Source: Octopus sinensis (taxonomy: Eukaryota). From it: a stretch of DNA of 64,000 nucleotides. A program made the translations under genes and the position numbers. The DNA is taken from NCBI RefSeq assembly GCF_006345805.1, contig NC_043009.1, forward strand, positions 18,476,001 to 18,540,000, written 5' to 3'. Below the pieces are notes generated by a model that had not been told where the DNA came from, searched no databases, and saw only the letters and a list, made by a program, of their open reading frames with translations. Positions 3,373 to 64,000 of the stretch are shown here, piece by piece; position 1 is the first letter of the stretch; each line of letters begins with the position of its first letter.

Positions 3373-3416
3373 ACAATCTGATGAAGGCGAAGAAACTGAA
3401 ACTTCGAAGTCATTGT
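3373..3416 (+). ncRNA. Minimal type I hammerhead ribozyme motif
   Basis: acaat-CTGATGA-ag..ct-GAAAC-TTCGAA-GTC-attgt: stem I acaat/attgt, palindromic stem III ACTTCGAAGT, GUC cleavage triplet; followed by (CA)n. Confidence 0.8.
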
Positions 3417-3465
3417 CAAATGTTTCCTTGTAAGATTAAATAAAAATTTACATAAATACAGACAT

Positions 3466-3514
<49 letters not shown>

Positions 3515-4227
3515 CCTTCTTTCAAATGCTGTATTCAGTTCTCTATGGTTTGAAATCGTTTACACGTATACGTGCACACTCACAATCCACACATACACAC
3601 ACACGTGTGTATGTGTGTGTGTTCATGTACTGTGTATATATGTATTTATGTATATACATATAATAATTCATTCACAAAAATAGAAAATAACTATAAATTT
3701 ATTAGTAAGAAATGATGGAGAAAATTGACACGCATTCTGTGTATATTCTAAAATACGGATAAAATAAAATAGAAGAGTTAAAAGAACAGAAAAAAGGATA
3801 AATAAAGAGGGCAAAGGGATCAGCCTTTGTTGCTAAAATGTCTTGTAGACCTCAGATGTTTAATTTCCGGTAGAAATAACATTTTGTGTGTGTGTGTGTA
3901 GTGAGAGAGATAGATAGGTAGAGAGAGGGAGAGAGAGAGGGGGAGAGGGAGAGAGAGGAAGCGAATATACAACAAATCTAATATGGCTTGAGGATTGAAA
4001 ACTCTTCCGTGAAAGAGATAGCAACGATGCTATCTAGCGTTTGGTTTCCATAAACAGTGCATCCGTTGTTTCTGCTTGTCAAAACAGGGGAAAACGGCAA
4101 AAGAATACCCTAGTGTATGGAACAGATCTTCACTTTCTATCCTGCTTGAACCGAACTAAATAGTTTTTATTTATATATAATTTCGACATACAAAAACACA
4201 CTCATAAGCACATTAATATATAATTGT

Positions 4228-4230
4228 ACA

Positions 4231-4273
<43 letters not shown>

Positions 4274-4321
4274 ATGCGTGTGTGTGTGTATGTGTGTGTG
4301 TGTGTGTGCATGCGTGTGTGT

Positions 4322-4355
<34 letters not shown>
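4228..4355. repeat. (GT)n microsatellite
   Basis: Direct reading. Confidence 0.95.
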
Positions 4356-5408
4356 TCTGCTTTAGTGTATGAGCGTTTGTTTCTGTCTTTTCACACACAT
4401 TCCAGTGTCTGCATGTTGTTAACCGAGGATACAGATCTGCTAGACTAATTGCTAAATATGTAAACACATGAACACACACACTTATGTATATATACAAACA
4501 TACATACACACACACACACACACACCACACACACACACATATATATATATATATAGTGTATGCGTGTGCGTGTGTGTGTGTCTTCCATGTGTTCGTGCTC
4601 CTTTTCCCTTACTTTTGCATATTCAATCCGTGTATATCTTAGCTGAAAGTGCACAAAGACAGCCATTCTTGTAATTTGACGATCGTTCACACAATACGCT
4701 CCTATCCGCTGTAGTATGTAAACGTCTTTTGCATATTAACAGCCAAATAGTTGTCGACTCTTTAGAACATTACAACGTCGGCAGTCTTTTGTTAAGTCCG
4801 AATGTAAAGTAAAATAGAAACGGATCTTCGTCGGTTATGACAATGAATTATTTGATCAACTGAATTATTTGCCCATTGAGCGTAAGTGGTTGAGTATTAC
4901 ACTTAGTGCTTCCATCACCCCCAAGCAGAATCAGCGTGTCACATAGAAGGCGCTTGGATGACAGAAGAATCGATCCGATCAGCCTCCACACAACTTTCGT
5001 CCACCCGATTCCCCCCACAGGACTCCGGGTGACCCAGGGCTTATAGCAAAAGACATTGGCCATGATACGTTGTTAGTGAGTCCGAACCATGAACGATGAG
5101 GCTACGAAGCGGACTTCTTTACAATGCCTTCACCTTCGAATGTATATATTAATTTACAGATACATACTAAAACACACACGCAAACATGCACGTACACACA
5201 CAAATATACACACGCTGCACAAGCATAAACAGTATAAGCAAATGTTATATGTATGCATGTATGTATGTATGTATGTATGTATGTATGTATGTATGTATTA
5301 TGCAAATCAAAAGCAAAAGACTGGAAAAAACAGCAAAGGTCAATTGGAAGTACACTGGGCATATATTAGATTGACGCTCAGTGAAAGTTTGAAATGGGAA
5401 AAATAGGA

Positions 5409-5440
5409 GTGACGTTTCGAGCAGAGCTTTTCGTCGGAAA
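5409..5440 (-). ncRNA. Degenerate hammerhead motif
   Basis: Minus strand tttCCGACGA-aaagc-tct-gctc-GAAACGTC; stem I not restored. Confidence 0.45.
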
Positions 5441-5664
5441 GAGGAAAAAGTTTAGAGACGAGAAAAAGAGGGAGAAAAAGGTAGGCCGGATATATACGAG
5501 GGAGTGGTGAAAAGCTCTTAGCTTTGGGGAAAAGAAAATACGGAAGGATCAGTTAATTATGATTTTATTGAACATATTCTTAGATTCACACACTTATTGC
5601 AGCAGACCTTCAGTTTTTCTAACCCTGTAAAAGAACTCGGATGGTTGGGCTTCAGACAAGACCT

Positions 5665-5735
5665 TTATGTATGTATGTATGTATGTATGTATGTATGTGT
5701 AAATATATATATATATATATGTATGTATGTGTGTG

Positions 5736-5832
<97 letters not shown>

Positions 5833-5969
5833 GTATATATATATATATATATATTACGGAGATGTACTCGCATAGCAAGTAATTTGATCTGAGATCGTGT
5901 GCTGAAACGAAAACAATTGCAGCGTGGAAGGTGTTTATAAGCCATTTAAGAAACACACAAACACACATA

Positions 5970-6039
<70 letters not shown>

Positions 6040-6040
6040 G
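5665..6040. repeat. (TATG)n/(TA)n microsatellite block with a ~110-bp interspersed insert
   Basis: Direct reading; unique insert at ~5855-5965. Confidence 0.9.
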
Positions 6041-6384
6041 ACATTATTGAGTTCTGTTTCTTTTGCTCGTAACTATTGTATCATATATCAGTGTTCACTA
6101 ACCTGGGTTCATACGTTCGTAAGTCTGCGAAATTTTTCTGAATTTGTGAAGCGGTGGGAGTGGAGGTCTAACAGAAGTCGACGGTAAAATTTGATATAGA
6201 ATTTTGATCCAAATTTTTAATATTGAGGAAATATTAAAATCATAGAATAGAAAGAAAAAAAAAACTGGGGAAAAAAAGCGACAGCAATTTTGACAAAAAT
6301 AACATTTAGGATCAATGAAAAGCTATTTACTGTCTTTCGAGATTTTTAGGTAAAAGAGAATACAACTGCCATGATAAATAATAT

Positions 6385-6965
6385 TTTTTATTATAGGCAC
6401 AGGGCCTGAAGTTTTGAGGGAGGGGGACTAGTCGATTACATCAACCTCAGAATTTCACTACTACTTAATTTATCGACCCCGAAGGGATGAAAGGCAAAGT
6501 CGACCTCGGCGGAATTTGAACTCGGAACGTAGCAACGGGCGAAATACCTATTTCTTTACTGCCCACAAGGGGCTACACACAGAGGGGACAAAAAAGGATA
6601 GACAAACGGATTAAGTCGATTATATCGACCCCAGTGCGCAACTGGTACTTATTTAATCGACCCCGAAAGGATGAAAGGCAAAGTCGACCTCGGCGGAATT
6701 TGAACTCAGAACGTAACGGCAGACGAAATACCTATTTCTTAATTACCCACAAGGGGCTAAACAAAGATGGGACAAACAAGGACAAACATAGGTATGAAGT
6801 CGATTACATCGACTTCAGTGCGTAACTGGTACTTAATTTATCGACCCCGAAAGGATGAAAGGCAAAGTCGACCTCGGCGGAATTTGAACTCAGAACGTAA
6901 CGGCAGACGAAATGCCGCTAAGCATTTCGTCCAGCGTACTAACGACTCTGCCAGCTCAACGCCTT
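6385..6965 (-). mobile_element. SINE family B (ggcggcgagctggcag... head), composite with three tandem internal units
   Basis: Three copies of 'atcgaccccgaaaggatgaaaggcaaagtcgacctcggcggaatttgaactc'; same family at 7.1, 7.3, 29.5, 41.0 and 42.2-43.0 kb. Confidence 0.85.
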
Positions 6966-7292: not shown

Positions 7293-7317
7293 ATTAATTT
7301 ATAGCGCATTAAATGCA

Positions 7318-8349: not shown

Positions 8350-9707
8350 TGTTGTTCTCTATTGTTATCAAGCAAAGATAAAGCTAACCTTAATCCTTTG
8401 TGGAAGAGTAGAAGACTAGAGAAGTAATAATGTATACTTGAGGATTCTGTAGATAAGGTTTCGTCTCTTAATGAACCTGGGTTTGAATCTTTCCAAGGAG
8501 TCTAGTCGCGGAAAGAATTTCTCCGCCAGCGAACTCCATACCTGGTCACCCTCCAGGTAGAGCCAGAGTTGCCTCAGCCTTAGCGCATGTTTGCGCATCC
8601 TCAGCTACGGTATCCCTAGCCCACCCTTTAGCGGTTCTTGACAGCAGAAATGTCGCCCCACAAGCGGTTTTCCTTCCTTCCACAAAAAGCGAAAGAGAAG
8701 GCGTTCCAACTTGTTTATCCACGAATCTGGGCAAGGGACTACAGTCAGACAGTAGGTGATAACAGATGCAATAAACACCTGCACCACCTCTGTCCTTCCT
8801 TTCAGGGAATACGTCCATCCGGACCAGATCCGGGTTAGGACCGCCACCCTGACGTCACCTCACTGCAATTCTCTGTCTGGGAATCCAATCCAAACCAGAT
8901 TCCAAGCAACTTCGCAGGACCTTCCGTCCAATGCCCCACGGCTTTGGACGGTATCGTCTTGCCACTCCAGGTACCGAGTCGCAAACCGATGGACTTGTCC
9001 TTATTAATTTTTGCCCCTGTCACCGCCTCGTAACCTTTGATTGCCTTTTCTACACAAGGTAGCTGAGTTTCATCAGTTACGGTGATGGTGACGTCATCCG
9101 CGTAAGCAGAAACTGATTTATTACATCCCAGTTAATTGGGGCTGTCTTCCAAATTCTCCAGCTTCCTCAGCAATGGCTCGAGAGCCAATACATACAGGAG
9201 CGGAGACAGGGGACACCCCTGACGAACCGAGCGCTCGATCTTAAACGGCACCGACAGGTAGCTGTTTACCTGGATAGGTGATTCAATGCCGCCGTAAATG
9301 GCAGTGATCCAGCCACGGAAATCTGGGCCCAGCCCAGCCGCCTCCAAGATTGCTGCCAGGTACTGGTGGTCTACCCTATCGAAGGCTTTACTTTGGTCTG
9401 AAGGGACTAGTGCTCCACCTTTACTGGAAAATTTACCCACCCTGTCTAGTGTGTATCGCAAAAGATGGAGATTGTCCTGGATTGACCTGCCTGGGATGGC
9501 GCATGTCTGCGCCTTCCCTACAAGTTTCTCCAAGACACGTGCCAACCTCTTAGCTAACACTTTGGCCAGAATCTTTAACTCTGCATTAAGTAGAGTTATG
9601 GGCCTAACATTATTGATATTATCCCCTTTGATCAGATCTTTTCTGATCCGCGTCACCACTCCCCGACTCACAGAGCTGGGAATCCTTCCATTCTGCTGCC
9701 AGTACAA
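8350..9707 (-). mobile_element. L1/Tx1-clade LINE reverse transcriptase fragment (disrupted)
   Basis: RPITLLNAELKILAKVLAKRL, DQSKAFDRVDH, RQGCPLSPLLY, SAYADDVT motifs; frameshifts downstream. Confidence 0.9.
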
Positions 9708-9889
9708 TCTTAATCTTTCTCTGAGTTAGATATGCTTTTTAAAGAAAAAAAAACTCAACAAATATAGACATTAAAAATCAAGTTGTTATACTTCCTGAAA
9801 CAGGTACAGCGTATGCTGAAATCGACGAGTTACTGGAGAAAAACATTTCTATTTCTCTACCTATCACAAAAATAATAAGTGCACAATTC

Positions 9890-14039: not shown

Positions 14040-14322
14040 TCAACAGAAATGTAATAAATGTATCCATGGTTAAATATCATTTACTACCAAAATTCCATAT
14101 GCAGCTGAAGATTGCTCTACATTTTAAAACTGATGTAATACTTGCATTGTTTAATTAAATGAAGTCGCATGAAACGATTGTATTGCACTACCTTTGGATA
14201 TCCTTGTTGCTTATTTTGATTAAAATCACCCCATTTTGATTTATATCGATAATACCATACCAAATTTTGGTGCTTTTACCTTAAGTGCCATATTCAACTG
14301 AATCTAAATTCTTACTGAACTA
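14040..14322 (+). mobile_element. Non-coding hammerhead-bearing element (same family as 60.44 kb)
   Basis: Hammerhead motif 14100-14187: tgcag-CTGAAGA-ttgc...gcat-GAAAC-GATT-GTA-ttgca; 3' tail 'gataataccataccaaatt...ttaagtgccatattcaactgaatc' ends in (TA)n. Confidence 0.8.
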
Positions 14323-17300: not shown

Positions 17301-17523
17301 CCGGAGTAAACACATAAATGTAAAACAAGGTGGAAAAAAGAGTACTCAAATACTAGTGGTAGAGTAATATGCTTTATTTAAGCAGCAGAAAATTCAACAA
17401 AACCTGTTACTCTGAGTTTCGCGTTGCCGTTCATCGGACAGTTGTAGCAAAAACTGTCCGATGAACGGCAACGCGAAACTCAGAGTAACAGGTTTTGTTG
17501 AATTTTCTGCTACTTTAAATAAA

Positions 17524-17527
<4 letters not shown>
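17300..17527. mobile_element. Hammerhead-containing fold-back in (TA)n
   Basis: Arms ~17367-17443 and ~17452-17527 are inverted. Plus-strand motif 17454-17491: ctgt-CCGATGA-acggcaacgc-GAAAC-TCAGA-GTA-acag; minus-strand copy at 17404-17441. Confidence 0.85.
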
Positions 17528-19968: not shown

Positions 19969-19989
19969 TAATATATATATATATATATA

Positions 19990-21062
19990 TATTAAACTAA
20001 AATTATTGAACAAACAAATGCAAGGTCATCCGCATAGCATTTCATAATTCGAACATTTAATCATAGAATATACATATAAACATCCCGCAAGATGGAACAT
20101 GATTCATCTGTACAAGCATATAAGCATATATATACTTCATCAAAATTTTTGAGTTAATATTTTAGCGATTCAGAAAAAATACATTTTTTAAAAAACGTAG
20201 AAAGTAAAAATATAATATAAGTAATATATAAAAATAAATAGGTATATAAAAATATATAAAATATATATTATTATATACATATAGGAGCATATAAAAAATA
20301 TATATCATGTAAATAAAATAAAAGTTCATCGTTTAGAAATCTTATTAAATAATTATTCAAGTAAAAGAAGCCTTATAGTTAAGAAGGGAACCATAGTTAC
20401 ATATCCCTATGGCCATTTCAGGGGTGTATTATGTTTAAAGCACTAGGGTGCATCCAGATAATACCTCCTTCGTCAGGGAAAAAAATATATAAACATAAAG
20501 ATAGACATTATCACGTACCAAGCCCGCACAATGTTGTTTGCTTTCCTATTGAGGCATTCATGCTCGGATTGCCCAAAACTATAAGGCTTCTTTTACCTAA
20601 ATAATTATTTAATAAGATTTCTAAACGATGAACTTTCATTTTATTTACATGATATATATTTTTATATGCTCCTATATGTATATAATAATATACATTTTAT
20701 ATATTTTTATATACCTATATATTTTTATATATTACTTATATTATATCTTTTACTTTCTACGTTTTTTAAAAAATGTATTTTTTCTGAATCGCTAAAATAT
20801 TAACTCTAAATTTTGATGAAAAAAAAATTTTTCTCGCACCTTATTATTATTATATGCTTGTCTGCTTATACAGATGAATTATGTTCCATCTTGCGGGATG
20901 TTTATATGTATATTCTATGATTAAATGTTCGAATTATGAAATGATATGCGGATGACCTTGCATTTGTTTGTTCAATAATTTTTGTTTAATATTTTTGTCT
21001 CTTTCAATAGAGCACTTCTATTAATCTTTTTGTTCCTGACAAGAAACAATCACTGTATTATT
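19990..21062. mobile_element. Long AT-rich fold-back in (TA)n (arms ~390 bp, loop ~195 bp)
   Basis: 19992-20380 is the reverse complement of ~20577-20990, with several substitutions; the right side extends a further ~70 bp to (TA)n. Confidence 0.85.
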
Positions 21063-21109: not shown

Positions 21110-22390
21110 TTATCTAGTTTCAGCTCACGAGCTGTGGCCATGCAGGGGCACCACCATTTGGTTTTGCTGCATGATTTTACTTCACGAATGCTTTTTAGCA
21201 ATTGACATTTGGTGCATGAGAGAGTTTGATGCAGCTGCCCTCACCTGCACCTCCTGCTGCGAAGTTGGTTCATCTGGGACACCTGACAGGAAGAAGTCCA
21301 CCTTTATTTTGAAGACACCTACATCCACCCCATGCAGGTCTCTCAGGTCCTTCGGAATGATATTGAAGAGCTTTGGACCTCTGAAGCCCAGGATATTGCA
21401 ATATCTTGTCCTACATCTTGACGGCAAATTTGGAATCCTTGACACTATGCAGTGGCGCCCAGTTCTAGCATTTGTGTAACTCTCGATGCTAAAGTTTGGG
21501 ACAAGTCCTTCCAGGATCTTCCAGATGTATATTATGGCATATTTCTCGCCTACGCTCTAAGGAATAGAGTCTTAATCTCTTGAGTCTTTCCCAATAGCTT
21601 ATATGCTGCATAGAGGCTATCTTCTTCGTGTAGCTTCATTGGATTGCCTCAAGTTCTGAGATTAATTTGACACTGAATGGTGACCATAGCTGAGAGTAAT
21701 AGGCAAAGTGGCTTAGGACAAGTGTCCTCCAGAGGACCATCATGGTTTCCTGGTCTCTTGTTCTAAAGGCTCTAAGAATCCATCCGGTCAGCCGCCTACA
21801 TTTCATTGCCAATTTAGCAACATGCACATGAAAGGTTGCATCATTACTCATGTAAATACCCAGGTCTCGCACTGATTGTGCCTCTGGGATTGCAATCCCT
21901 CCAGGTCCAGTGTATTCATTGGGTATTGCATTTAGTTTTGCATGCTGAAAGCATAAAGCTTGAAACTTTTCAGCATTGAACTGCATGCTATTCTTTTCAG
22001 CCCCCTTGTATATTTTGCCCAGCTCACATTGCAGGTGCATAGTGTCTTTAGGATTCTGTATTACCTGTGAAACTTTTGTATCATCTGCATAACTTGTGAT
22101 CGTGGCTCTCTGCGTGGCTGAGGGCATGTCTGAGAGGGCCATTATGAACAGTAGTGGTCCCAAAACAGTGCCTTGCGGAACACCGCTCATTATTTGCATG
22201 TCATTGGAGGTGGCCCCATAGGCTACTACCACCTGACTTCTATCCTTCAGAAAATCATGAAGCCATTCTCCCAATTTTCCAACTATGCCAAGATCACGCA
22301 GTTTGTGACATATCATTCCATGATCGACTTTATCAAAGGCCTTTGCAAAGTCGAGATATATCACTGCCACATTTGAGTGGTTGAGCAGCT
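21110..22390 (-). mobile_element. CR1/Jockey-group LINE, 5'-truncated RT plus 3' end
   Basis: YLDFAKAFDKVDH, SGVPQGTVLGPLLF, YADDTK, RDLGI motifs; interrupted at (TA)n near 22393. Confidence 0.9.
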
Positions 22391-22409
22391 GTTATATATA
22401 TATATATAA

Positions 22410-25099: not shown

Positions 25100-25890
25100 T
25101 TTTTTAAGCTTGCTCACGCTTTACAAGTTCATGTATGACTTCAAATCTACATAATCTACAACAGGCGGTAGGTCATCGAACTCTACCTCCACTCCCATTC
25201 TTTTAATTTTCTACACCCCTCTTAGTCTATTACTATGCCTTTTGTATTTTCTGTGTAAAGCTCCGCTGGTAATTTTACTCTAGTTACCGATTTGAATTTG
25301 GTAATTTTCCTTTCTATTGCCGTACTTTTTGAATATGCTACCATATACCATTTATTTTAATTGTTTGTTTCTGCGGTGAACTTGGGTTGTCTGGGTAGGT
25401 TTCCTTCTTGTTTCCTTTTGTTTGTGATGCTGGTTGAGATGTGTACCGCATAAGCTCTGCAATGTCCATTTCACTCTTTTTCTTGTTTGAACTCTTCGGA
25501 GGTGAGTTCACAAATTCTTTTCTTTTTCGTCTGTTCACATCCGTAAGTCCTTCCTCCGCCTCCCCTGTGCATTTCTCACTTACTAGGGCCGCCACTTCGG
25601 CATTCTGCTCCTTTTGGCTTTCCTCATTTTTGCTATCTCTCTGGGGGCACCTTATTCTCATGTGTCCCTTCTTTCCGCATTGATAACAGGTTGGTGGTCT
25701 TCCTTCCACCACCACTCTCGACCTTATGTCCTCCGGCAGAATTACCTCTTCAGCGATTTCGTTCAAATCTTTTTGTCCAATCTGAATGACCATTTCTAGG
25801 CCATATCCCCATCAATTTACCTTCTTTGTCATTGTCACCTTTAAAATTTTGGCGTCCTCCTCGGTTTTATGCATAACTACTGTAGCTTCT
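25100..25890 (-). mobile_element. LINE ORF1 (gag-like) fragment with CCHC zinc knuckle
   Basis: ORF 25338..25793: RVVVEGRPPTCYQCGKKGHMRIRCP. Confidence 0.75.
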
Positions 25891-26275: not shown

Positions 26276-26610
26276 TAACCAAGAAAATAGAAAGAGCCAC
26301 GGAAGAAGCGATAGAAGAATGTCTTAAGGAGATAAAGAATCTAACAACATTCTACACAAGAAGTAGAAAATACGGTACAGTGGAGGTGAGATTTGCCAAT
26401 GAACAGGAGGCAATAAATCTGTGACGCTGAGGACGAAAGAATGGGTACTCCCGTCACACTACTGCGGCAAAATGGTCGCCAGAGTTAGAATTGGCAGGGT
26501 ACCACCGGAAATCAAAGAAGCGTGTCTGGTGGAAGCCATAATGCACAAAACCGAGAACGAGGCCAAAATTTTAAAGGTGACAAGGACAAAGAAGATACAT
26601 TGATGGGCAT
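26276..26610 (+). mobile_element. LINE ORF1 fragment related to 25.1-25.9 kb (opposite strand)
   Basis: 'gccaaaattttaaaggtgacaa' is shared in inverted orientation with 25830-25855. Confidence 0.65.
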
Positions 26611-26611
26611 A

Positions 26612-26709
26612 TGGCGTAGTGGTTAAGAGCGCGGGCTACTAACCGCGAGATTCCGAGTTTGATTCCAAGCAGTGACCTGAACAACAACAACAACAATAAT
26701 AATAATAAC

Positions 26710-26748
<39 letters not shown>

Positions 26749-26892
26749 TACAACATCGAAAAATACCTTAGGAATGAGAACTCAGGTTCGAAATTTCCCC
26801 AAGATACCTGATGAAGGCTGGAGGGTATTTCAGCCGAAACGTTGTGTTAACAACAAACAAAATGAGGAAAAATATCCGTCAAATGTAAATAA
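26612..26892 (+). mobile_element. tRNA-headed SINE-like element ending in a hammerhead ribozyme
   Basis: A box TGGCGTAGTGG, B-box-like GAGTTTGATTCC, (AAC)n(AAT)n linker, then the hammerhead at 26803-26848. Confidence 0.75.
26803..26848 (+). ncRNA. Minimal type I hammerhead ribozyme motif
   Basis: gatac-CTGATGA-a-ggctg..cagcc-GAAAC-GTT-gtgtt: stem II ggctg/cagcc, palindromic AACGTT stem III, stem I with G-U pairs. Confidence 0.75.
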
Positions 26893-39550: not shown

Positions 39551-39564
39551 TATATATATATAAT

Positions 39565-39875
39565 GTCCCGATAGTGAAATTCTTCAGGTATAGAAAATCC
39601 TGGTTTCACGACGGTAAGACCGTTGTGTGATATAGTCCAAATAATAAGACAAAGAAATGCTTTAACACGTCTTTAATGATCACTTACAATTGTTTCTGCC
39701 AGTTAACGCAAAGGTTCGAAGTGAAAACTTACGTAATATTTGAAGTTTTAGACATTAGAGGGGCACTTCATCAGATTTGCATCAAAGGTGTGCTCTCACA
39801 TTGAGCATCTTCCAGAATGTTTGCTTATGATAATTAAAGATGTGTTAAAGCATTTCTTTGTCTTATTATTTATAT
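39565..39875 (-). mobile_element. Short fold-back with a hammerhead-like motif next to (TA)n
   Basis: Arms 39640-39678 / 39833-39871. Minus strand CTGATGA-agtgcc...ggca-GAAAC-AATT-GTA (39681-39779); stem I weak. Confidence 0.7.
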
Positions 39876-40988
39876 TGTAATTGTGTACGTGTGCGTGTGT
39901 GTGTGTGTGTGTAGGAAAGCTTGTCAGAGCATAAAGAAATGTATTTTGTTGAATTCATTCTTTTTGATAAAGCACATTGATACGGAACCCTTTTGAGTTC
40001 TTTATTGTAAGTGACCTGTTCGTATTAACATGAACTGGTAAACAGATTCTCAGTGTGAGAGCGCGCGCGCGTATGTTAAACATACATACACATAAAGACA
40101 TGCACACACATACACACACACACATATATACATGTGCGTGCACACATGCTCTCTCTCTCTCTCTCTCTCCCTCTCTCTCAAACACACACACTTGCACATA
40201 TACTATGCTGGCAATGATAATGTTTAGACCGACAACCCAGCCACTACATCGCGCTTTGCGAATATTAAAACAATCACCCAGTTGGGCGCATCTTGAAGCA
40301 TAAACGAGACGTTCCCTTCTTTTACAGCAGGGTAAACAAATAATATATAAACAAAGACCGCCATATAACCCTCAAATTATGTAAAAACAAACGACAAAGA
40401 AATCTAATAACCCAAACTGTCAAGGGAAAAAATAGTAGATCTAAGCAAATTCAGCCTGCACTGAAGCAGAAAATGACTGCATAATTGATGGCTCTATGAA
40501 TTTGTGTGCATTGTTTTTGTAATGTTTTTCTATCGTTCTATTGCTTTAACAGCGTAGCCTTTTCTTTCGTTACTGACGCTATGGTGTGTAAAAGAATGTA
40601 TATGTATGTATGCATGGATGTGAACGTCTTTCCTTTTATCTGTCTGTCTGTCTCTCTCATCTCTGTGTTATGTACATAAGTGCGTATTCACTAAAACATA
40701 TGTAAATGGAATGTATGTATATAAATATGTATAAATATAGATAAATCAAAAATATTCTCGTAAACAACGTTGCATTCTTTATTACTATTAGATCTTCATT
40801 TTAACAGTTAGTATATCGAACAGAAAATGGCATAACCGTCGTTTTGGTCTGGTATCCTGTGTAAAAACATAGTAGGGATTTAATTGTATAATAACCAAGG
40901 CACCCACACATACACACATACACACACATCCCCCACCAACACACACTCATGTACTGAATCATTAAATCCTTACGCATACAAAGCTCCA

Positions 40989-45033: not shown

Positions 45034-45447
45034 TCATGTGTAGGGACTGCTGTTGAAAGCCTTCCGGTAATCACTCCATGCCATTACTTTGAACCATCTT
45101 ATTTCGTCGGCAGATTCAGTTATGGTTTTGTCAATCAATAACTGATCGTTATAACCATATGAACCTTTGCAACATCCCTCCTGCTCTTCTAGAAACCGGT
45201 TATCTTCTAGATGTCTATTCAATCTCTGCGATGTTATTATAGCTGTTAAGACTTTGTAATTTGTAGGGAGACATGATATGAGTTTGTAATTCTCTGAGTT
45301 TGTGGTAGATTCGGAGATTAAGGCGATTTTCCTTTCTGTGAGCCATTCACACGTTGTCTCTACTTCCGTCAGCATCTCATAAAATTTTCCTGCAAAATAT
45401 TTAAACCAGAAGTCGGGTATCTTGTCATATAGCAATAAATAAATCAA
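45034..45447 (-). mobile_element. R4/Dong-like non-LTR RT fragment
   Basis: YKLISCLPTNYKVLT, EEQEGCCKGSYGYNDQLLID, MAWSDYRKAFNS. Confidence 0.75.
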
Positions 45448-45479
45448 TATTTTGTATTCTTATATTTTCCCTACTATTA

Positions 45480-47744: not shown

Positions 47745-47795
<51 letters not shown>

Positions 47796-48731
47796 AAAAT
47801 AGTAAAGTGTGAAAAAACGACAGAAGGCTTAAATGTTAAAAAATATATATATTTGTGTCAAAATGCTGGAGAATATTGGAAAAATTTTTTTTCCCTTTCC
47901 TTAAAATGACATAATTTAAAATTTTTAAAGAAATTACCGGTTTCGCGTGTAGCTTTTCAAATTTCTTGTGACGTTATGTTTATATTGCATGGAATTATCG
48001 TTGTTTTTATTTCCAGGAGATTTCTAAATAAGGGGAGGTAGTGAGTGATTTTTTCCGGTGTAGGGGAGATAATCGCTTAAAAATTTTTTTTTTCCCTTTT
48101 CCTTGTTAATTTCTCTGTGTCAGTATGTTCGGATGGTTGAGTCTGGGTTTGTACTTTTCAATGAAGAATGTTTCCTTGTTCAGTCTCATTTGTGTTGATG
48201 ATCCGAAAGCACATTGGTAAAATGGGAAGATTAAAAATTGTGGCAGTAGTTGCTTTGCGCATTTCTCAATGTGCTCACTAAAAGGTATCATTCTATATTC
48301 TGGGAATGCAATCTGTTGTCGATGCAGTGTGCATCTGCGCCTGAGTGATAGTCCCGTGGAACCCACGTAGTCTTGGTGGCAGCCCGAGCATTTAATAACA
48401 TAAATTATGTTTTCAGAGGCACAAGTAAAGTTAGATTTGATCTTAATTTCTGTCCCTCTTTAAAGAAGAATTCTGATCCTTCCAATAGGTTAGGACATGT
48501 TGCACAGTTCGATCTACCACATTTTTTTACTTTTGCATCCGTAATTTTAGAAGACAATTTTGCCTTTGTGAGAATCTTTTTAAGTGATTTAGGCTGTTTG
48601 TAGCTTTTAATGATTTGGTGTATGTTTAGAATTTCCTTTAATTTTGGGTTTTTATGAAGTATTGGTAAATTCTGGGTGATGATGGTGAAGGCTTCTTTGT
48701 TTCTGGGGTTGTATGTAGATATGTAAGGTAC

Positions 48732-50789
48732 ATCCCACACAGAGGAAGAAATAAAGATCTTGACGAATTCTGTAACCACATTGAGAACTTCCCCTACCAT
48801 ACTATACATAAACAGAAAGCTAACCCAAATTTTAACACTACACAATGGAAAGAACTGATAGAACTCCAAAATGATGAAGATATAACCATTAAGGAAGCGG
48901 ACAAGGGAAATGCAGTTGTAATAATGGATACATCATACTACAGAAATCTTGTAATTTCCTTGCTTGATGAAGACCTACATTATGAAAAAATTACCAACTA
49001 CACCCCACAAAAAATAATGAAAACTATATCTTCACTAATTAAAACCCATGAAAAGGAACTGACAACCAAAGAGATTGATTTCCTAACAAACTTTAAATGC
49101 AAACCTAGCCTTTTCTATGGTCTGCCAAAAATTCATAAAAGTCAAATTATAAATGAAACCATTAAAAAATCACCAAAGACATACATACACACACCTAATC
49201 CGGGGGACCTAAAACTACGACCCATTGTAGCTGGCCCAACCTGTGAAACACACAGACTAAGTCTACTTATGGACATCCTCTTGAAACCCTTCCTTAAACA
49301 TATCGATAGCCATATCAGAGATGACTTAGATATGTTAAACCACCTTCCAAAAAAAACCAAGGAAGAAACAATCCTGGTTTCATTTGATGTAGTCAACTTG
49401 TATACCAGTATACCTCATAATTATGGACTAGAGGCAATACAATTCTGGTTAGACCAATTTCCGGAAGAAATACCAAAAAGGATCAGTAAGGAATTCATTA
49501 CTAAATCAATTGAATTCATCCTACACAATAACCACTTCATGTTTGACAATACATTTTACCGTCAAAAATCCGGAATTGCTATGGGTACAAGGGCAGCACC
49601 AGTCATTGCGAACTTAACAATGGGATACATGGAAATAATCATTTACCAGGAATCTCTATCAATCTTTGGAAACTCCCTCTCTCAATACATAAAAGAGAAT
49701 TGGAAACGATTCCTAGACGATTGTTTCATTCTCTGGAATGAAAACATAGATAAACTCCTAAAATTTAAAAACCTATTGAACAGCATAAACCCAAATATAC
49801 AGTTCACAATGGAATACAACCAAAAGGAGCTCCCGTTCTTGGATATACTAATTAAAAAAATTAACCTTAAAATAGAAACAGACATTTTTTACAAAGCCAC
49901 AGACGCCAAACAATACCTTCTTTTTAATTCATGCCACCCAAGACACACTAAAACAAACATCCCCTTCAACCTTGCAAGAAGGATATGCACAATAGTGTCA
50001 GAACAAAATACCAGGAACTTTAGACTGCAAGAACTCAAAAACACCCTAATTGACAGACATTACCCAGCTCAACTCATAGAGGATGGGATCAGACGTGCAA
50101 CAGAAATCAACATAGAAACTTTAAGAAAAGTTCAACACAACAACACACCTTCCCCGAAAATACTACCTTACATATCTACATACAACCCCAGAAACAAAGA
50201 AGCCTTCACCATCATCACCCAGAATTTACCAATACTTCATAAAAACCCAAAATTAAAGGAAATTCTAAACATACACCAAATCATTAAAAGCTACAAACAG
50301 CCTAAATCACTTAAAAAGATTCTCACAAAGGCAAAATTGTCTTCTAAAATTACGGATGCAAAAGTAAAAAAATGTGGTAGATCGAACTGTGCAACATGTC
50401 CTAACCTATTGGAAGGATCAGAATTCTTCTTTAAAGAGGGACAGAAATTTAAGATCAAATCTAACTTTACTTGTGCCTCTGAAAACATAATTTATGTTAT
50501 TAAATGCTCGGGTTGCCACCAAGACTACGTGGGTTCCACGGGACTATCACTCAGGCGCAGATGCACACTGCATCGACAACAGATTGCATTCCCAGAATAT
50601 AGAATGATACCTTTTAGTGAGCACATCGAGAAATGCGCAAAGCAACTACTGCCACAATTTTTAATCTTCCCATTTTACCAATGTGCTTTCGGATCATCAA
50701 CACAAATGAGACTGAACAAGGAAACATTCTTCATTGAAAAGTACAAACCCAGACTCAACCATCCGAACATACTGACACAGAGAAATTAA
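48732..50789 (+). CDS. Penelope-type reverse transcriptase + GIY-YIG endonuclease (open from the inversion junction; first ATG at 48924)
   Basis: EADKGNAVV, YGLPKIHK, LRPIV, SFDVVNLYTSI, GIAMGT, RFLDD, LPFLDI, CGRSNCATC linker, NIIYVIKC...YVGST...R..H..H; no internal stop. Confidence 0.95.
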   Translation: MPHRGRNKDLDEFCNHIENFPYHTIHKQKANPNFNTTQWKELIELQNDEDITIKEADKGNAVVIMDTSYYRNLVISLLDEDLHYEKITNYTPQKIMKTISSLIKTHEKELTTKEIDFLTNFKCKPSLFYGLPKIHKSQIINETIKKSPKTYIHTPNPGDLKLRPIVAGPTCETHRLSLLMDILLKPFLKHIDSHIRDDLDMLNHLPKKTKEETILVSFDVVNLYTSIPHNYGLEAIQFWLDQFPEEIPKRISKEFITKSIEFILHNNHFMFDNTFYRQKSGIAMGTRAAPVIANLTMGYMEIIIYQESLSIFGNSLSQYIKENWKRFLDDCFILWNENIDKLLKFKNLLNSINPNIQFTMEYNQKELPFLDILIKKINLKIETDIFYKATDAKQYLLFNSCHPRHTKTNIPFNLARRICTIVSEQNTRNFRLQELKNTLIDRHYPAQLIEDGIRRATEINIETLRKVQHNNTPSPKILPYISTYNPRNKEAFTIITQNLPILHKNPKLKEILNIHQIIKSYKQPKSLKKILTKAKLSSKITDAKVKKCGRSNCATCPNLLEGSEFFFKEGQKFKIKSNFTCASENIIYVIKCSGCHQDYVGSTGLSLRRRCTLHRQQIAFPEYRMIPFSEHIEKCAKQLLPQFLIFPFYQCAFGSSTQMRLNKETFFIEKYKPRLNHPNILTQRN

Positions 50790-50927: not shown

Positions 50928-50967
50928 AAGAAATTTGAAAAGCTACACGCGAAACCGGTAATTTCTT
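50928..50967 (+). ncRNA. Minimal hammerhead in the Penelope 3' UTR (U3-A8 variant); inverted copy at 47928-47967
   Basis: aagaaat-TTGAAAA-gc-tacac-gc-GAAAC-CG-GTA-atttctt: 7-bp stem I, palindromic ACCGGT stem III. Confidence 0.75.
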
Positions 50968-51226: not shown

Positions 51227-51625
51227 AGAATAAAGCAACAAGAATGGATCAATATTTCGGTACAATTGTTTCGTACGAAGACAGCTTTATTAAGGCTGCA
51301 AATATTGCAGTAAATATAAGTGACCCGTACTCATCAGCCGAAAAAACATCTGAGTTCTCCAAACATCTAAGGGGGTGATGTTACACTCCTGAAATATAAG
51401 GGATAGTTCTATAAAAATAAGATTTAGGTAACAAATGGACTTCTAAAAGTTCGTACGAAACAATTGTACCGAAATATTGATCCATTCTTGTTGCTTTATT
51501 CTTATTTATAATCACCCCGCATTATCTTATGGTTAACACCATATAGATTTCTGGTGCATCTAAGTTAAGTACCGCATTCATGTGAATTCAACAGAACTCA
51601 CTTGAATCTTAATTGCTTTTACTAT
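51225..51625. mobile_element. Hammerhead-containing fold-back in (TA)n
   Basis: Arms 51225-51279 / 51450-51503. Minus-strand motif 51255-51343: tttcgg-CTGATGA-gtacg...cgtac-GAAAC-AATT-GTA-ccgaaa. Confidence 0.85.
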
Positions 51626-52872: not shown

Positions 52873-52920
52873 GTCTTACAGCTGTTTCCGGGATATTTTA
52901 TAAATTTCTTCATCGGAGAC
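52873..52920 (-). ncRNA. Hammerhead-like motif
   Basis: gtct-CCGATGA-...-GAAAC-AGCT-GTA-agac: stem I gtct/agac, palindromic ACAGCTGT; stem II degenerate. Confidence 0.65.
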
Positions 52921-55599: not shown

Positions 55600-55989
55600 A
55601 AAAGAATTATGAATAATTAATAATATCAATGGGTAATCTGAAATATTAGAAATTTCCATTACCAGTGGCCTCGTGTGTAAAAATTTAGTCAATAGACTAT
55701 ATATTATTCATATAAATACAGTGTACATTTAAACACGTAACAGGTATCCATCATAGGATTACCTGCATGCTAGGAAGGACAGTTAAATTCCAAACCACTA
55801 TTAAGGATAAAATTTCGAAGGAAATGAAAAATAAAAACATTTACCATCTAACTCCTGGACCAATGGTTTCAGACTTTTTAGCAAATAAAATAATTGGCTA
55901 GGCGAAGCCTTCTTCGGCATGTACACCTTAGATTAAATATATATACACGAGGCAATCCAGTATATTCCTCGTACTAATACATCAAATAA

Positions 55990-58982: not shown

Positions 58983-60238
58983 ACATTAACAATTAAGGAA
59001 CGGCCATAATAGGCCATTCACCCACTAGAAATAACAGCCAAAGCTTCTACCGCAAATAAAGATCAATTCCGTAAACTGGAGAAAATTAAAAAAACATTTA
59101 CCCTGTAATTTCTTGTACGGTATACCGTTTCATCCGCTGTTTAATGGTAAACTAACCTGATTAAATTAAATCAAGCTAATCTTCCATAAGCCCTCGGATT
59201 CTTCAGCAAGAAATAGCTCAAGTCGGAACAGATATATACACGAGGCATACCCAATCTTGCCAAGTCAATATCTGACCTAAAATTTTCAAATCGTCGCACT
59301 CGCGCCAAATTTATCGGCAGCAAATAAATATCAGCCGTCGATTCCATTACGGAATTAACCAAAAAATTCATAATTAATCAATATAGGGTGGCAAGGAAAA
59401 TTTTGTAGAATTTTATTGCCACCAGCGGCCCAGCGGGAAAAAAATTAAATAGTCATAGACCATTTTTAAGTTCAACATTAACAACATTAACAATTAAGGA
59501 ACGGCCATAATAGGCCATTCACCCACTTTTTTTAATTTTCTCCTGTTTACGGAATTGATCTTTATTTGCGGTAGAAGCTTTGGCTGTTTTTCTAGTGGGT
59601 GAATGGCCTATTATGGCCGTTCCTTAATTGTTAATGTTGTTAATGTTAACTTAAAAATGGTCTATGACTATTAATTTTTTTCCCGCTGGGCCGCTGGTGG
59701 CAATAAAATTCTACAAAATTTTCCTTGCCACCCTATATTGATTAATTATGAATTTTTTGGTTAATTCCGTAATGGAATCGACGGTGATATTTATTTGCTG
59801 CCGATAAATTTGGCGCGAGTGCGACGATTTGAAAATTTTAGGTCAGATATTGACTGGCAAGATTGGGTATGCCTCGTGTATATATCTGTTCCGACTTGAG
59901 CTATTTCTTGCTGAAGAATCCGAGGGCTTATGGAAGATTGGCTTGATTTAATTTAATCAGGTTAGTTTACCATTAAACAGCGGATGAAACGGTATACCGT
60001 ACAAGAAATTACAGGGTAAATGTTTTTTTAATTTCTCCTGTTTACGGAATTGATCTTTATTTGCGGTAGAAGCTTTGGCTGTTATTTCTAGGGTGAATGG
60101 CCTATTATGGCCGTTCCTTAATTGTTAATGTTGAACTTAAAAATGGTCTATGACTATTTAATTTTTTTCCCGCTGGGCGCTGGTGGCCAATAAAATTCTA
60201 CAAAATTTTCCTGCCACCCTATATTGATTAATTATGAA
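58983..60238. mobile_element. Retrozyme-like ~500-nt unit: ~1.1 copies on minus plus ~1.4 tandem copies on plus, in (TA)n
   Basis: Unit start repeats at 58983 and 59484; strand switch near 59527; 59527-59750 repeats at 60022-60238; no credible ORF; contains a hammerhead. Confidence 0.85.
59903..60009 (+). ncRNA. Type I hammerhead with extended stem II; inverted copy at 59108-59214
   Basis: atttcttg-CTGAAGA-atccg...cggat-GAAAC-GGTATACC-GTA-caagaaat: 8-bp stem I, 5-bp stem II, palindromic stem III. Confidence 0.85.
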
Positions 60239-60407
60239 TATATATATATACATATATATATATACATACATACATATTATATATACATACATACATATAT
60301 ACATACATACATATATACATACATATATACATACATACATACATATATATTATACATATATATATACATATATATAATATATACATGCATACATACATAC
60401 ATACATT

Positions 60408-60442
<35 letters not shown>

Positions 60443-60445
<3 letters not shown>

Positions 60446-60650
60446 CAAAATAAGCAACAAGGATATCCAAGGTAATGCAGTACGATCGTTCATGCGACTC
60501 CATTTAATTAAACAATGCAACTATTACATCAGTTTTAAAATGTAGAGCAATCTTCAGCTGCATTTTGAATTATATGGATAATACCATACCAAATTCTGCT
60601 GCCTTTAACTTAAGTGCCATATTCAACTGAATCTAATTTTTATGAACTTA
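60443..60650. mobile_element. Rearranged copy of the 14.0-14.3 kb hammerhead element in (TA)n
   Basis: Hammerhead on minus at 60474-60564 (aatgcag-CTGAAGA...GAAC-GATC-GTA-ctgcatt, one A missing); 3' tail on plus from ~60577. Confidence 0.8.
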
Positions 60651-60660
60651 TATATATATA

Positions 60661-61050
60661 TACATGAGGGTAATCCCAAAAGTAAGGTCTCCAAAAATAT
60701 TTTAAAATCACAGAAATGTTAATTGTCAATGACGTGTACATCATTTTAAAGTTTGAATATATATTTTTCAACATAATCGCCATTTCGGTCGATGCATTTT
60801 TGTAGGCGCTGGGGCAGTTTTTGTATGCCCATGTCATGCCAGCTCACCGCCATGTCGTTGAGGAGGCGTTGAACCTCATCTTTCACCTTGACGTCGTTGC
60901 TGAAGCGCGTTCCGGCCAAATATTCCTTCAACTTAGGGAAAAGGCGGTAGTCACTGGGTGCCAAGTCCAGACTATAAGGTGGTTTGCTGTTTATGGTCTT
61001 CTGTGAGCATTCGTGGGACCCATCTTGGGCACACCGTCCGACATAGCAAC
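60661..61050 (-). mobile_element. Mariner transposase 3' fragment with terminal repeat
   Basis: PYSLDLAPSDYRLFPKLK...RLQKCIDRNGDYVEK; end 'tacatgagggtaatcccaaaagtaag'. Confidence 0.85.
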
Positions 61051-61467
61051 TTAAAACAGACGTTAGCTGATAATTAAGCGGTCTCCCACTAGCAGACTAT
61101 TGATAACGAAACAGGGAAAGTCTTATCATGTAGTACTATAGTTATTTAAACAATGTTGCTATATTATATACAGTTAAATTTTAGGGTTATTCAAAAGATT
61201 ATTAAGAAGAATATTGTAACAAAAGGATAGAAATTTATGAATACTTTTGAGTATATAACAAACTGGGGCAGTTTTAAGTATTAAGTTTTCCCTTACTAAA
61301 CCTCATGACATTGCTTCTAATAAACCTTGATTTTTATGACTATACTATCTACAATGTCAGTCTACTTCCTCAATCCTACCCCAAACAGATACTGCCCTCG
61401 GTTTCTCTCAGCCTTAAATAATCAAACTCCATTCTTATATATATATATTTATACATATATATTTATA

Positions 61468-61517
<50 letters not shown>

Positions 61518-61530
61518 ATGTATATATATG

Positions 61531-61565
<35 letters not shown>

Positions 61566-61579
61566 TATATATATATATT

Positions 61580-61615
<36 letters not shown>

Positions 61616-61619
61616 ATAA

Positions 61620-62397
61620 AATTAATTAAGGGTAGAAATTGATATTTATCAATTAAGACCAGTGGTCTAGCATATTAAAAAAGAATCCGAAGATTAAAAT
61701 ATTTATATATACCAATTAAGGACTGAACACGAAAAGTGGACAGTCAACATGCTAGATATAGACGTCAAATCGCCATTCACCACAAAAGATTATGTTCTCA
61801 GATCAAACAAAACTCAGCACAAAACCATAGCAATAAACAAGTGAAAAATATACGAATAAAATAATTACCCATGTACTAATTAGTTTCGGCTGTTATTTTC
61901 CGCAAGGAAAACTGCAGCCATCATCAGCATGGTCCGTTATAAATGCAATTTGCTGGACTAGATGCAAACACGATACCGAAATATCGCGTGCATGGAGTTC
62001 AGCCTATTACATTTGAATATATCTTTCAAATGCCTTTACTTTGGCGCGTTGAGACCCGGGTCTCAACGCGCCAAAGTAAAGGCATTTGAAAGATATATTC
62101 AAATGTAATAGGCTGAACTCCATGCACGCGATATTTCGGTATCGTGTTTGCATCTAGTCCAGCAAATTGCATTTATAACGGACCATGCTGATGATGGCTG
62201 CAGTTTTCCTTGCGGAAAATAACAGCCGAAACTAATTAGTACATGGGTAATTATTTTATTTCGTATATTTTTCACTTGTTTATTGCTATGGTTTTGTGCT
62301 GAGTTTGATCTGAGAACATAATCTTTTGTGGTGAATGGCGATTTGACGTCTATATCTAGCATGTTGACTGTCCACTTTTCGTGTTCAGTCCTTAATT

Positions 62398-62400
<3 letters not shown>
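61620..62400. mobile_element. Spacerless palindromic hammerhead element in (TA)n
   Basis: Centre gacccgggtc at ~62058; arms ~345 bp. Motif ccatg-CTGATGA-t-ggctg...cagcc-GAAAC-TAATTA-GTA-catgg at 62183-62246 (+) and 61869-61932 (-). Confidence 0.85.
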
Positions 62401-62442
<42 letters not shown>

Positions 62443-62503
62443 TAAATATAAATATATTTTGACAGTATATATATATATATAATATTTATATATTATATAT
62501 ATA

Positions 62504-63328
62504 TACATGAGGGTAATCCCAAAAGTAAGGTCTCCAAAAATATTTTAAAATCACAGAAATGTTAATTGTCAATGACGTGTACATCATTTTAAAGTTTGAA
62601 TATATATTTTTCAACATAATCGCCATTTCGGTCGATGCATTTTTGTAGGCGCTGGGGCAGTTTTTGTATGCCCATGTCATGCCAGCTCACCGCCATGTCG
62701 TTGAGGAGGCGTTGAACCTCATCTTTCACCTTGACGTCGTTGCTGAAGCGCGTTCCGGCCAAATATTCCTTCAACTTAGGGAAAAGGCGGTAGTCACTGG
62801 GTGCCAAGTCCAGACTATAAGGTGGTTTGCTGTTTATGGTCTTCTGTGAGCATTCGTGGGACCCATCTTGGGCACACCGTCCGACATAGCAACTTAAAAC
62901 AAGACGTTAGCTGATAATTAAGCGGTCTCCCACTAGCAGACTATTGATAACGAAACAGGGAAAGTCTTATCATGTAGTACTATAGTTATTTAAACAATGT
63001 TGCTATATTATATACAGTTAAATTTTAGGGTTATTCAAAAGATTATTAAGAAGAATATTGTAACAAAAGGATAGAAATTTATGAATACTTTTGAGTATAT
63101 AACAAACTGGGGCAGTTTTAAGTATTAAGTTTTCCCTTACTAAACCTCATGACATTGCTTCTAATAAACCTTGATTTTTATGACTATACTATCTACAATG
63201 TCAGTCTACTTCCTCAATCCTACCCCAAACAGATACTGCCCTCGGTTTCTCTCAGCCTTAAATAATCAAACTCCATTCTTATATATATATATTTATACAT
63301 ATATATTATATATATATATATATTATAT

Positions 63329-63362
<34 letters not shown>

Positions 63363-63378
63363 ATGTATATATATGTAT

Positions 63379-63409
<31 letters not shown>

Positions 63410-64000
63410 GTATATATATATAATATATATAATATATATATATATATTATATATATATATATATATATAAAATTAATTAAGGGTAGAAATTGATATTTAT
63501 CAATTAAGACCAGTGGTCTAGCATATTAAAAAAGAATCCGAAGATTAAAATATTTATATATACCAATTAAGGACTGAACACGAAAAGTGGACAGTCAACA
63601 TGCTAGATATAGACGTCAAATCGCCATTCACCACAAAAGATTATGTTCTCAGATCAAACTCAGCACAAAACCATAGCAATAAACAAGTGAAAAATATACG
63701 AAATAAAATAATTACCCATGTACTAATTAGTTTCGGCTGTTATTTTCCGCAAGGAAAACTGCAGCCATCATCAGCATGGTCCGTTATAAATGCAATTTGC
63801 TGGACTAGATGCAAACACGATACCGAAATATCGCGTGCATGGAGTTCAGCCTATTACATTTGAATATATCTTTCAAATGCCTTTACTTTGGCGCGTTGAG
63901 ACCCGGGTCTCAACGCGCCAAAGTAAAGGCATTTGAAAGATATATTCAAATGTAATAGGCTGAACTCCATGCACGCGATATTTCGGTATCGTGTTTGCAT
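62504..64000. repeat. Second copy of a ~1843-bp tandem duplication (mariner fragment + palindromic hammerhead element)
   Basis: ORFs 60746/62589 and 60821/62664 are identical with offset 1843; hammerhead copy at 63716-63779 (-). Confidence 0.9.

Follow-up and report, generated by a model that had tools for sequence, protein, structure and literature searches.

We analyzed a 64-kb stretch of the Octopus sinensis genome (contig NC_043009.1, positions 18,476,001 to 18,540,000; hereafter the window), which is part of a 2.72-Gb assembly, has a GC content of 37% and is rich in microsatellites. The window holds a series of type I hammerhead ribozyme motifs that sort into 13 families, designated A to M. 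Our reading, to which we assign a probability of roughly 0.8, is that these are terminal hammerheads of many families of Penelope-like elements (PLEs), together with those of non-coding passengers, for whose copying the same reverse transcriptase (RT)-endonuclease proteins are likely responsible. The data bear on how Penelope-like elements insert and on whether their hammerheads do anything. The basic phenomenon is already known: PMC4209133 describes the motif with its variants, pairs on opposite strands and occurrence in large numbers.

Hammerhead motifs in the window and across the genome

We scanned the window for type I hammerheads, the descriptor asking for a C[TC]GANGA or TTGANAA core, GAAA, a stem I of at least 4 pairs and a loop II of up to 110 nt. 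Stem III was called palindromic at 75% palindromy or more overall, a filter that favors a self-complementary center without forcing it. The scan revealed 15 matches, 14 of them with a palindromic stem III. In 200 local dinucleotide shuffles of the window the mean was 0.145 matches and 0.05 palindromic matches, with maxima of 2 and 1, respectively. The motif frequency is far above that of the shuffled controls; the window motifs are real and chance matches are refuted. Descriptor-intact sites are found at 3378 (+), 14105 (+), 17437 (-) and 17458 (+), 20476 (-), 26808 (+), 47960 (-) and 50935 (+), 51337 (-), 59206 (-) and 59911 (+), as well as 61927 (-), 62188 (+) and 63774 (-). They represent nine independent intact insertions, the site at 63774 being part of a local 1.85-kb duplication.

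The idea that AT-rich, repeat-rich DNA or assembly artefacts could have produced such a set has practically no probability. It can point to the looseness of the descriptor, to the one window copy that is a local duplicate, and to three of six single motifs that fold no better than shuffles; single-motif folding was uninformative for short motifs. Against it stand, besides the excess over shuffles, the many contigs on which each family has dozens of almost identical copies and the presence of family K and E sequences in independent sequencing runs.

A preliminary description of this DNA had listed 12 foldable hammerhead loci. Eight of them pass the descriptor, whereas four are damaged copies of real families: stem I is broken at 39681 and 55854, stem II is damaged at 52873, and the motif at 60474 has lost one A of GAAA. 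Intact copies of the 52873 and 60474 families exist elsewhere, and the motifs at 14100 and 60474 belong to the same family (B). The motif at 5409 fails the descriptor and is decayed, as had been stated. The list was incomplete, because the intact minus-strand motif at 20476 had been overlooked, as had a transfer RNA (tRNA)-like head at 26605 and a rule of long and short ends, which are both described below. Runs of (TA)5 or longer lie within 270 nt behind the cleavage site at 13 of 19 motif sites, compared to 17% of random positions. An Rfam scan of the window returned no hammerhead family at E ≤ 5 and only microsatellite noise. Overall, we regard the motifs as hammerheads predicted from sequence and the initial observation as partly confirmed.

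Genome-wide density was estimated from 54 ten-kb stretches at fixed round positions (539,800 bases). Palindromic stems III were present in 23 of 28 descriptor matches, which equals 43 per Mb or about one per 23 kb, and 20 shuffles of this sample gave 0-3 matches each. Extrapolation to the whole genome yields about 110,000 motifs (bootstrap 70,000-171,000). With 14 palindromic matches against 2.7 expected, the window is around five times richer than the genome, and the density of one per 5 kb proposed at the outset is a local peak. The available part of PMC4209133 gives counts of about 2,000 and 1,300 for Schistosoma and 9,000 for Xenopus; our 43 per Mb is far above these, with the looser descriptor used here. 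The notion that such elements are under-annotated is weak. The annotation of Octopus vulgaris assigns 6.83% to Penelope-like elements in 190 families, the word "ribozyme" being absent from the text as available to us (PMC13282606), and the supplement of PMC8557442 catalogues an O. bimaculoides element with a hammerhead, Hydra-1_Obim.

The fixed-position sample contained two further hammerhead tandems, L298:9231 and 9777 (period 546 bp) and L304:9993 and 9405 (588 bp), the former weakly resembling family L. Judged by these tandems, non-coding retrozyme families seem numerous in the genome.

Coding Penelope-type ends and non-coding tandem units

The genome was searched with eight of the window families, and the 30 best loci were taken from the roughly 40 candidates scored per search. 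Clade labels were assigned by motifs, following PMC8557442, and not by tree. Six of the 13 families are ends of coding Penelope-like elements and two are tandem retrozymes. A further one shows kinship with a non-coding 210-bp unit, and the other four are unplaced. Among the six coding-linked families, in which an endonuclease sits 0.1-1.9 kb upstream of the ribozyme, four are Hydra-type (B, C, D and H), one is Neptune-type (G) and one is Poseidon-type (E).

The open reading frame (ORF) of family G matches RVT_1 (E 2e-7) and GIY-YIG (E 0.003, below the curated cut-off); no solved structure matched the protein. It was classified as Neptune-type because of its CX4CxxC linker and CCHH motif, and a 99% identical copy exists elsewhere. 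Its ribozyme at 50935 carries a U3-A8 variant of the core. A Neptune-type relative with 58-60% protein identity (L241:4175, plus strand) likewise ends in a U3-A8 hammerhead, and this variant may mark the Neptune-type lineage of G. In family D, the Hydra-type ORF (L129, L131, L132, L148 and L242) is located 0.4 kb ahead of the ribozyme end and contains the motifs DKT and CxCX5C. The near-whole, broken ORF in L242 resembles Hydra-1_Obim by eye. For families B, C and H only the endonuclease part was reached; it is Hydra-type and located 1.1-1.9 kb upstream, at 1.1 kb for C (L101, L111) and H (L011, L026). ORFs beside family H in L241 and L242 were considered as its own and ruled out, as their terminal hammerheads are different ones, of the U3-A8 type and of family D, respectively.

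Insertions of the endonuclease-bearing families include a 5'-truncated copy in inverted orientation and have a tail at one end, and (TA)n is found at 40 of 50 and 40 of 49 ends in two Hydra-type families. These traits agree with the elements described in the accessible part of PMC8557442, which combine an RT with a C-terminal GIY-YIG domain, have a tail at one end and a 5'-truncated copy in inverted orientation, target (TA)n, and fall into clades marked by DKT with CxCX5C, by DKG with CX4CxxC, or by no linker. Tails are 30-40 nt long there, compared to about 65-115 nt in the Hydra-type and retrozyme families here, where 3' untranslated regions (UTRs) extend up to 1.9 kb.

The preliminary description saw mostly short non-coding elements that share the microsatellite-targeting machinery of the element at 48-51 kb. 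Six of the nine placed families are instead truncated coding ends that extend into RT/GIY-YIG ORFs, although true non-coding retrozymes do exist in families K and L. The hammerheads are indeed of the Penelope type and come from many families, but the 48-51 kb element is Neptune-type and stands beside four Hydra-type families and one Poseidon-type family, and the latter, family E, has no (TA)n targeting (7 of 160 ends). Overall, the initial interpretation is partly supported by the sequence comparisons.

Families K and L consist of tandem units with one hammerhead each, the units measuring mostly 486-496 bp (K) and 496-512 bp (L) between cleavage sites. Arrays reach up to nine units per arm in K and at least 13 in L. 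The longest ATG frames span 66 (K) and 59 codons (L), and no PLE protein match was detected in 60 oriented loci. The arrays are dispersed over many contigs, lie in (TA)n and show a central inversion and two fixed ends, as in mobile copies. Their motifs resemble the PLE palindromic type. Copies of family L are 98-100% identical; older L subfamilies of 75-85% identity with the same inverted layout were seen at L011:498-1369, L056 and L122. Family K sequence, with subfamily variants, is also present in runs X1, X2 and X16, which bear three organism labels (mapped to 59560-60260), so that K is common to related species.

Conceivably, all motifs could be ordinary 5'-truncated Penelope ends, with K and L as local tandem amplifications and the short form of family E, described below, as a product of RT fall-off at a hairpin. 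We consider this unlikely. Six families are plainly coding ends, and the preprint 10.64898/2026.07.22.740005, in its available part, allows for local amplification. The dispersal of K and L, their location in (TA)n, their mobile-type ends and inversion, and the lack of an ORF match in the oriented loci all argue against local amplification and for passengers of Penelope proteins. The full Penelope signature of these tandems is more direct evidence for mobilization in trans than the co-occurrence and trees used earlier.

[quoted passage not shown] K and L resemble them as non-coding tandem units of low GC with one type I hammerhead each, for which an origin as non-autonomous Penelope derivatives has been proposed. 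They differ by ribozymes that resemble the long-palindrome PLE type more than the canonical one, and by the direct Penelope signature of central inversion, two ends and (TA)n.

The unit of family M is non-coding and constant in length, at about 210 bp, and is bordered by (TA)n on either side; (TA)n also lies between the units of its tandem pairs (2 of 6 loci fetched). In L432, L433 and L436, M units directly follow related ribozyme-like elements in the same orientation with only (TA)n in between; judged by these loci, elements appear to stack in one another's microsatellite ends. Family A is old: its 29 other fetched copies are 70-86% identical, none passes the descriptor, and no ORF link was found in the 30 loci searched. 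Families F, I and J, which had no genome search of their own, gave no ORF link in the fetched loci.

Ribozyme fold, paired 3' ends and the tRNA-like head of family E

Over all loci gathered, 581 of 605 matches are palindromic, and these fall into 39 clusters whose stems are unrelated. Pairing stems around a conserved core are specific to each family, as had been noted for the window, and the catalytic core, the U3-A8 compensation and the NUH triplet are all retained. The core variants CCGANGA and UUGANAA occur beside CUGANGA. The foot of stem II reads as an insertion or mismatch in 19 of the 39 clusters and as direct pairing in the other 20. Stems III measure mostly 8-12 nt here, and the stem II region reaches 77 nt. 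Among clusters with even-length stems III of at least 8 nt, 22 of 24 have a self-complementary central dinucleotide. In a monomer these central bases would be an unpaired loop, and pairing is open to them only between two copies. Eight of nine window palindromes show no predicted monomer hairpin, and all nine are predicted to form duplexes. Contigs from other runs have GC in place of AT at the palindrome center of family K, both bases changing together (X16, depth 37136 and 37136). In stem II, T and A occur in these contigs as possibly linked variants of the pair C59921-G59982.

The minimal PLE hammerheads in the available part of PMC4209133 share the core, the palindromic stem III, the U3-A8 variant and, with part of the clusters here, a possible extra base after A9. 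They likewise comprise many families per genome, occur mostly solo or as opposite-strand pairs 100-700 bp apart, and are rarely found in full elements. The lengths of stem III and of the stem II region given above set the octopus motifs apart from them.

Well-sampled families have two fixed 3' ends each, located 30-115 nt apart downstream of the cleavage site: +131/+237 in K, +42/+155 in H, +41/+108 in C, and about +52 and +76 or more in E. In family L they lie at about +160/+255 (the aligned ends at 170 and 265 include TA overlap). Head-to-head insertions combine one long and one short arm in 59 of 60 cases (K 22/22, H 9/9, C 15/15, L 13/14), the single exception in L having one intermediate end. 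For family C the query had the long tail, so only the partner arm tests the rule. In family E, 40 of 46 inverted insertions are long plus short, and none is long plus long. The pairing agrees with an inferred single protein complex that primes both strands and uses one site on each, and the rule constrains any insertion model. Strict pairing is not stated in the part of PMC8557442 available to us, where the tail is often at one end only.

The Poseidon element PAc of the green anole (PMC11167929, as far as available) provides a close parallel. There, two internal RT starts downstream of the hammerhead define the tail, targets are AT-rich, both strands are cut, and a dimer is predicted. In vitro the start site did not differ between strands and no reads ended at the cleavage site, whereas insertions here pair one site per strand and the 5' ends of family K cluster at the cleavage site. 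Among 52 5' ends in 30 K arrays, the interval +6..+13 contains 8, compared to 1.4 expected (P 6e-5), and the stretch up to +25 contains 13, compared to 2.6 expected (P 1.5e-6); limited to the first 140 bases, which the query favors, the latter figure compares to 8 expected. The cluster possibly reflects run-off from cut RNA with slight trimming, or an RT stop at the 8-bp stem I. It is a genomic hint of a ribozyme folded or cut in the template, in contrast to the in vitro report of dispensable cleavage.

Motifs that serve as protein-binding or folding signals, or that are mere passengers, without cutting RNA in the animal, are a highly improbable explanation. It draws on the anole work, in which ribozyme mutants left insertion in vitro unaffected and unprocessed RNA was the main template, and on Naiad elements, which thrive without hammerheads. 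Furthermore, every inserted copy keeps sequence downstream of the cleavage site, which implies that the copied unit was uncut or religated. Retention of core, compensation and triplet in 39 clusters with unrelated stems, a palindrome center constrained as dimer catalysis would need, and the K 5' ends behind the cleavage site speak against this explanation.

Family E consists of a 77-bp head, an (AAT)n run and the ribozyme at 26808. Box-like motifs in the head were called by the known forms of the A-box and the B-box. Among 20 tRNA sequences of the genome the head best matches tRNA-Arg(TCT), with an alignment score of 66 against a shuffled maximum of 58. The ribozyme body lies within 1 kb behind the head in all 30 best head matches, and an inverted arm is present at the 5' side in 20 of them. 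Long copies continue upstream into a Poseidon-type endonuclease and RT with a stop codon about 30 nt before the head; Pfam gave no GIY-YIG match for this protein. Conversely, the head follows endonuclease matches in 28 of 30 cases and the body directly in the other two. A body merely inserted in the (AAT)n tail of an unrelated tRNA-derived short interspersed element (SINE) was ruled out by the constant union of head and body and by the position of the head behind the ORF stop. The internal (AAT)n is itself often a landing site, interrupted by 3' ends of other elements (L162, L168, L278 and others).

The short, non-coding form of E measures about 260-300 bp. Of 44 arms in 30 loci chosen by the body alone, 43 are tallied: the head is missing from 17, the first base lies inside the head in 5 and within -6..+6 of the head start in 19, and 2 extend into the ORF. 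Hence, 19 of 21 arms that reach the head start begin there. Loose ends accumulate at this point in two other runs as well (139 and 103 contigs), and non-inverted copies also begin at the head. None of the five E insertions in the fixed-position sample has the endonuclease stretch, and this sample suggests about 25,000 E insertions, with a wide error. A putative polymerase III start inside the terminal repeat is the simplest reading; its competitor is a fixed RT stop at a small palindrome, TGCCC-AC-GGGCA, at the head start.

This competitor belongs to the view of ordinary truncated ends. The palindrome could fix the junctions, and the E endonuclease stretch is itself abundant (2,863 first-look candidates). 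Non-inverted copies starting at the head are harder to reconcile with RT fall-off, and RT would reach the tRNA-like fold from its 3' side, yet the whole head is copied. Partner arms pass the head in 4 of 7 endonuclease-bearing cases compared to 2 of 21 otherwise, which suits two RNA classes. In three long-tailed E copies, the sequence between the head and the 3' end is free of T4 runs. The short form appears to work like a SINE, yet it is none by the SINEBase definition (PMC3531059): the defining long interspersed element (LINE) partner and simple-repeat tail are missing, and its 3' part is a Penelope-type end with inversions and two fixed ends.

In the accessible parts of the literature, schistosome Sm-alpha SINE-like repeats (PMC6765202) resemble E in having a polymerase III-type promoter beside a hammerhead, and the tRNA- or 5S-bearing non-autonomous LTR elements Helenus, Ajax and Cassandra (PMC10886601) in having a piece of a small-RNA gene inside the terminal repeat. 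E differs from these, as its tRNA-like piece lies in a coding Penelope-type terminal repeat and parent and short form share 3' end and insertion signature. Our literature searches found no tRNA-headed Penelope terminal repeat, the comparison covering sources other than Repbase, Dfam and the 1994 octopus SINE families; "tRNA" is absent from the supplement of PMC8557442 as available to us. Nor did they find a long-plus-short pairing rule stated as such or a cephalopod hammerhead census, subscription papers being mostly outside the search. Three points were thus not found in print: the tRNA-like head of E, the pairing of long and short ends, and the K 5'-end cluster behind the cleavage site.

Taken as terminal hammerheads and passengers of Penelope proteins, the motifs would fit the following course. 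At a target that is AT-rich or (TA)n, the protein would nick the two strands, and two complementary DNAs (cDNAs) would be primed internally on the element RNA, one per start site. Joined head to head, the two 5'-truncated cDNAs would leave short stubs that carry the ribozyme. Cutting would require that two copies pair via stem III and would trim multimeric transcripts, and in K and L the templates obtained by cleavage would likely be circles or multimers. For family E, a promoter of tRNA origin in the terminal repeat would likely make a short polymerase III RNA, which the protein of the parent element may copy into SINE-like copies.

A bolder version is tentative, and we rate it a little below even odds. 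It holds that a Penelope element with a captured tRNA promoter spawns a ribozyme-bearing, polymerase III-driven SINE-like element in tens of thousands of copies, which is copied by Penelope and not by LINE proteins. Two-armed insertions would use both start sites, one per strand, retrozyme templates would often begin at the hammerhead cut as a fossil of cleavage in vivo, and the genome would hold about 100,000 intact motifs. If true, the tRNA-headed terminal repeat would be a new route to SINE-like elements.

Several points weigh against our interpretation. Among the fetched loci no sequence connects K or L with a coding element; as scoring covered the 40 best candidates of each family, a rare coding copy could have escaped. 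The K cluster falls at the margin of the 8-bp stem I, and an RT stop accounts for it just as well. Family L has no clear 5'-end cluster at the cleavage site. The E head scores modestly as a tRNA, with ARAGORN calling 0 of 47 loci by default and 2 of 30 under relaxed settings and with no Rfam match. Cleavage, transcript ends, circles and polymerase III transcription are predictions. According to the portions of the reports available to us, published minimal PLE hammerheads cut weakly (PMC4209133), eight of nine frog retrozyme dimers showed no cleavage (bioRxiv 2026.07.22.740005), and anole insertion did not need cleavage (PMC11167929). Very young families offer ready test material, in particular L at 98-100% identity and G with its 99% copy.

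Features of the window and neighboring repeats

Table 1. Hammerhead-bearing elements and their parts in the 64-kb window.
Feature	Position	Strand	Details
Family A hammerhead, descriptor-intact	3373..3416	+	No ORF link found
Decayed minimal hammerhead	5405..5442	-	ACGT stem III; diverged relative of family M
Family B hammerhead	14100..14187	+	Hydra-type 3' end; in L292 and L293 the endonuclease lies 1.7-1.9 kb upstream
Family C head-to-head insertion in (TA)n	17302..17524		Hammerheads 17404-17441 (-), 17454-17491 (+), core CCGAUGA; ends +108 and +41 from cleavage site
Family D inverted insertion	19972..21009	-	Hydra-type 3' end; hammerhead 20404-20480
Family E tRNA-like head	26605..26681	+	A-box and B-box-like motifs
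Family E internal (AAC)n(AAT)n run	26680..26748	+	Belongs to element
Family E minimal hammerhead	26803..26848	+	GUU site; ACGT stem III; additional A following A9; end of element ~26895
Family F insertion	39563..39885	-	Hammerhead core 39774 with broken stem I
Family G inverted 3' arm	47785..48730	-	Endonuclease fragment, 3' UTR, hammerhead 47928-47967, terminal (TA)n
Family G ORF, 5'-truncated, stop-free, Neptune-type	48731..50789	+	RT DKG motif, CX4CxxC linker, GIY-YIG with CCHH
Family G hammerhead	50928..50967	+	U3-A8 core, ACCGGT stem III; element ends ~51140
Family H inverted insertion in (TA)n	51228..51625	-	Hammerhead 51255-51343; ends +42 and +156
Family I hammerhead	52875..52920	-	Stem II damaged in window copy; intact in L327, L364
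Family J hammerhead	55854..55922	-	Stem I broken
Family K retrozyme, head-to-head in (TA)n	58985..60240		491-bp unit; hammerheads 59108-59214 (-), 59903-60009 (+); ends +133, +241
Second family B insertion	60445..60648	-	Hammerhead GAAA minus one A; inverted tail
Family L retrozyme, head-to-head in (TA)n	61620..62398		505-bp unit; hammerheads 61869-61932 (-), 62183-62246 (+)
Family L insertion, duplicate	63470..64000	-	Hammerhead 63716-63779; other arm just outside window

The 1.85-kb tandem duplication at 60746-64000, which holds the family L insertion together with a transposase-like fragment (60746-61096 and 62589-62906), could be genuine or an assembly artefact. The fragment gave no Pfam match. 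By its motif we take it to be mariner-like.

A decayed Hydra-type Penelope ORF lies at 36792-38898 on the minus strand, with 47% identity to the L242 ORF over the first RT piece, and no intact hammerhead was found behind it. Motif F was considered as the end of this ORF; the tie was not made, as (TA)n separates the two. Broken pieces resembling an LTR retrotransposon are present at 31223-33042 on the minus strand, with an integrase core (E 7e-4) and gag/protease-like text upstream. LINE-type RT fragments and a zinc-knuckle ORF fragment, all on the minus strand, were found at 9132-9725, 21636-22391, 45034-45459 and 25338-25811, the first two matching RVT_1. Finally, a 184-bp tandem of 2.5 copies at 6462-6913 is formed by an abundant repeat that recurs at 7311, 29545, 41039 and 42250.

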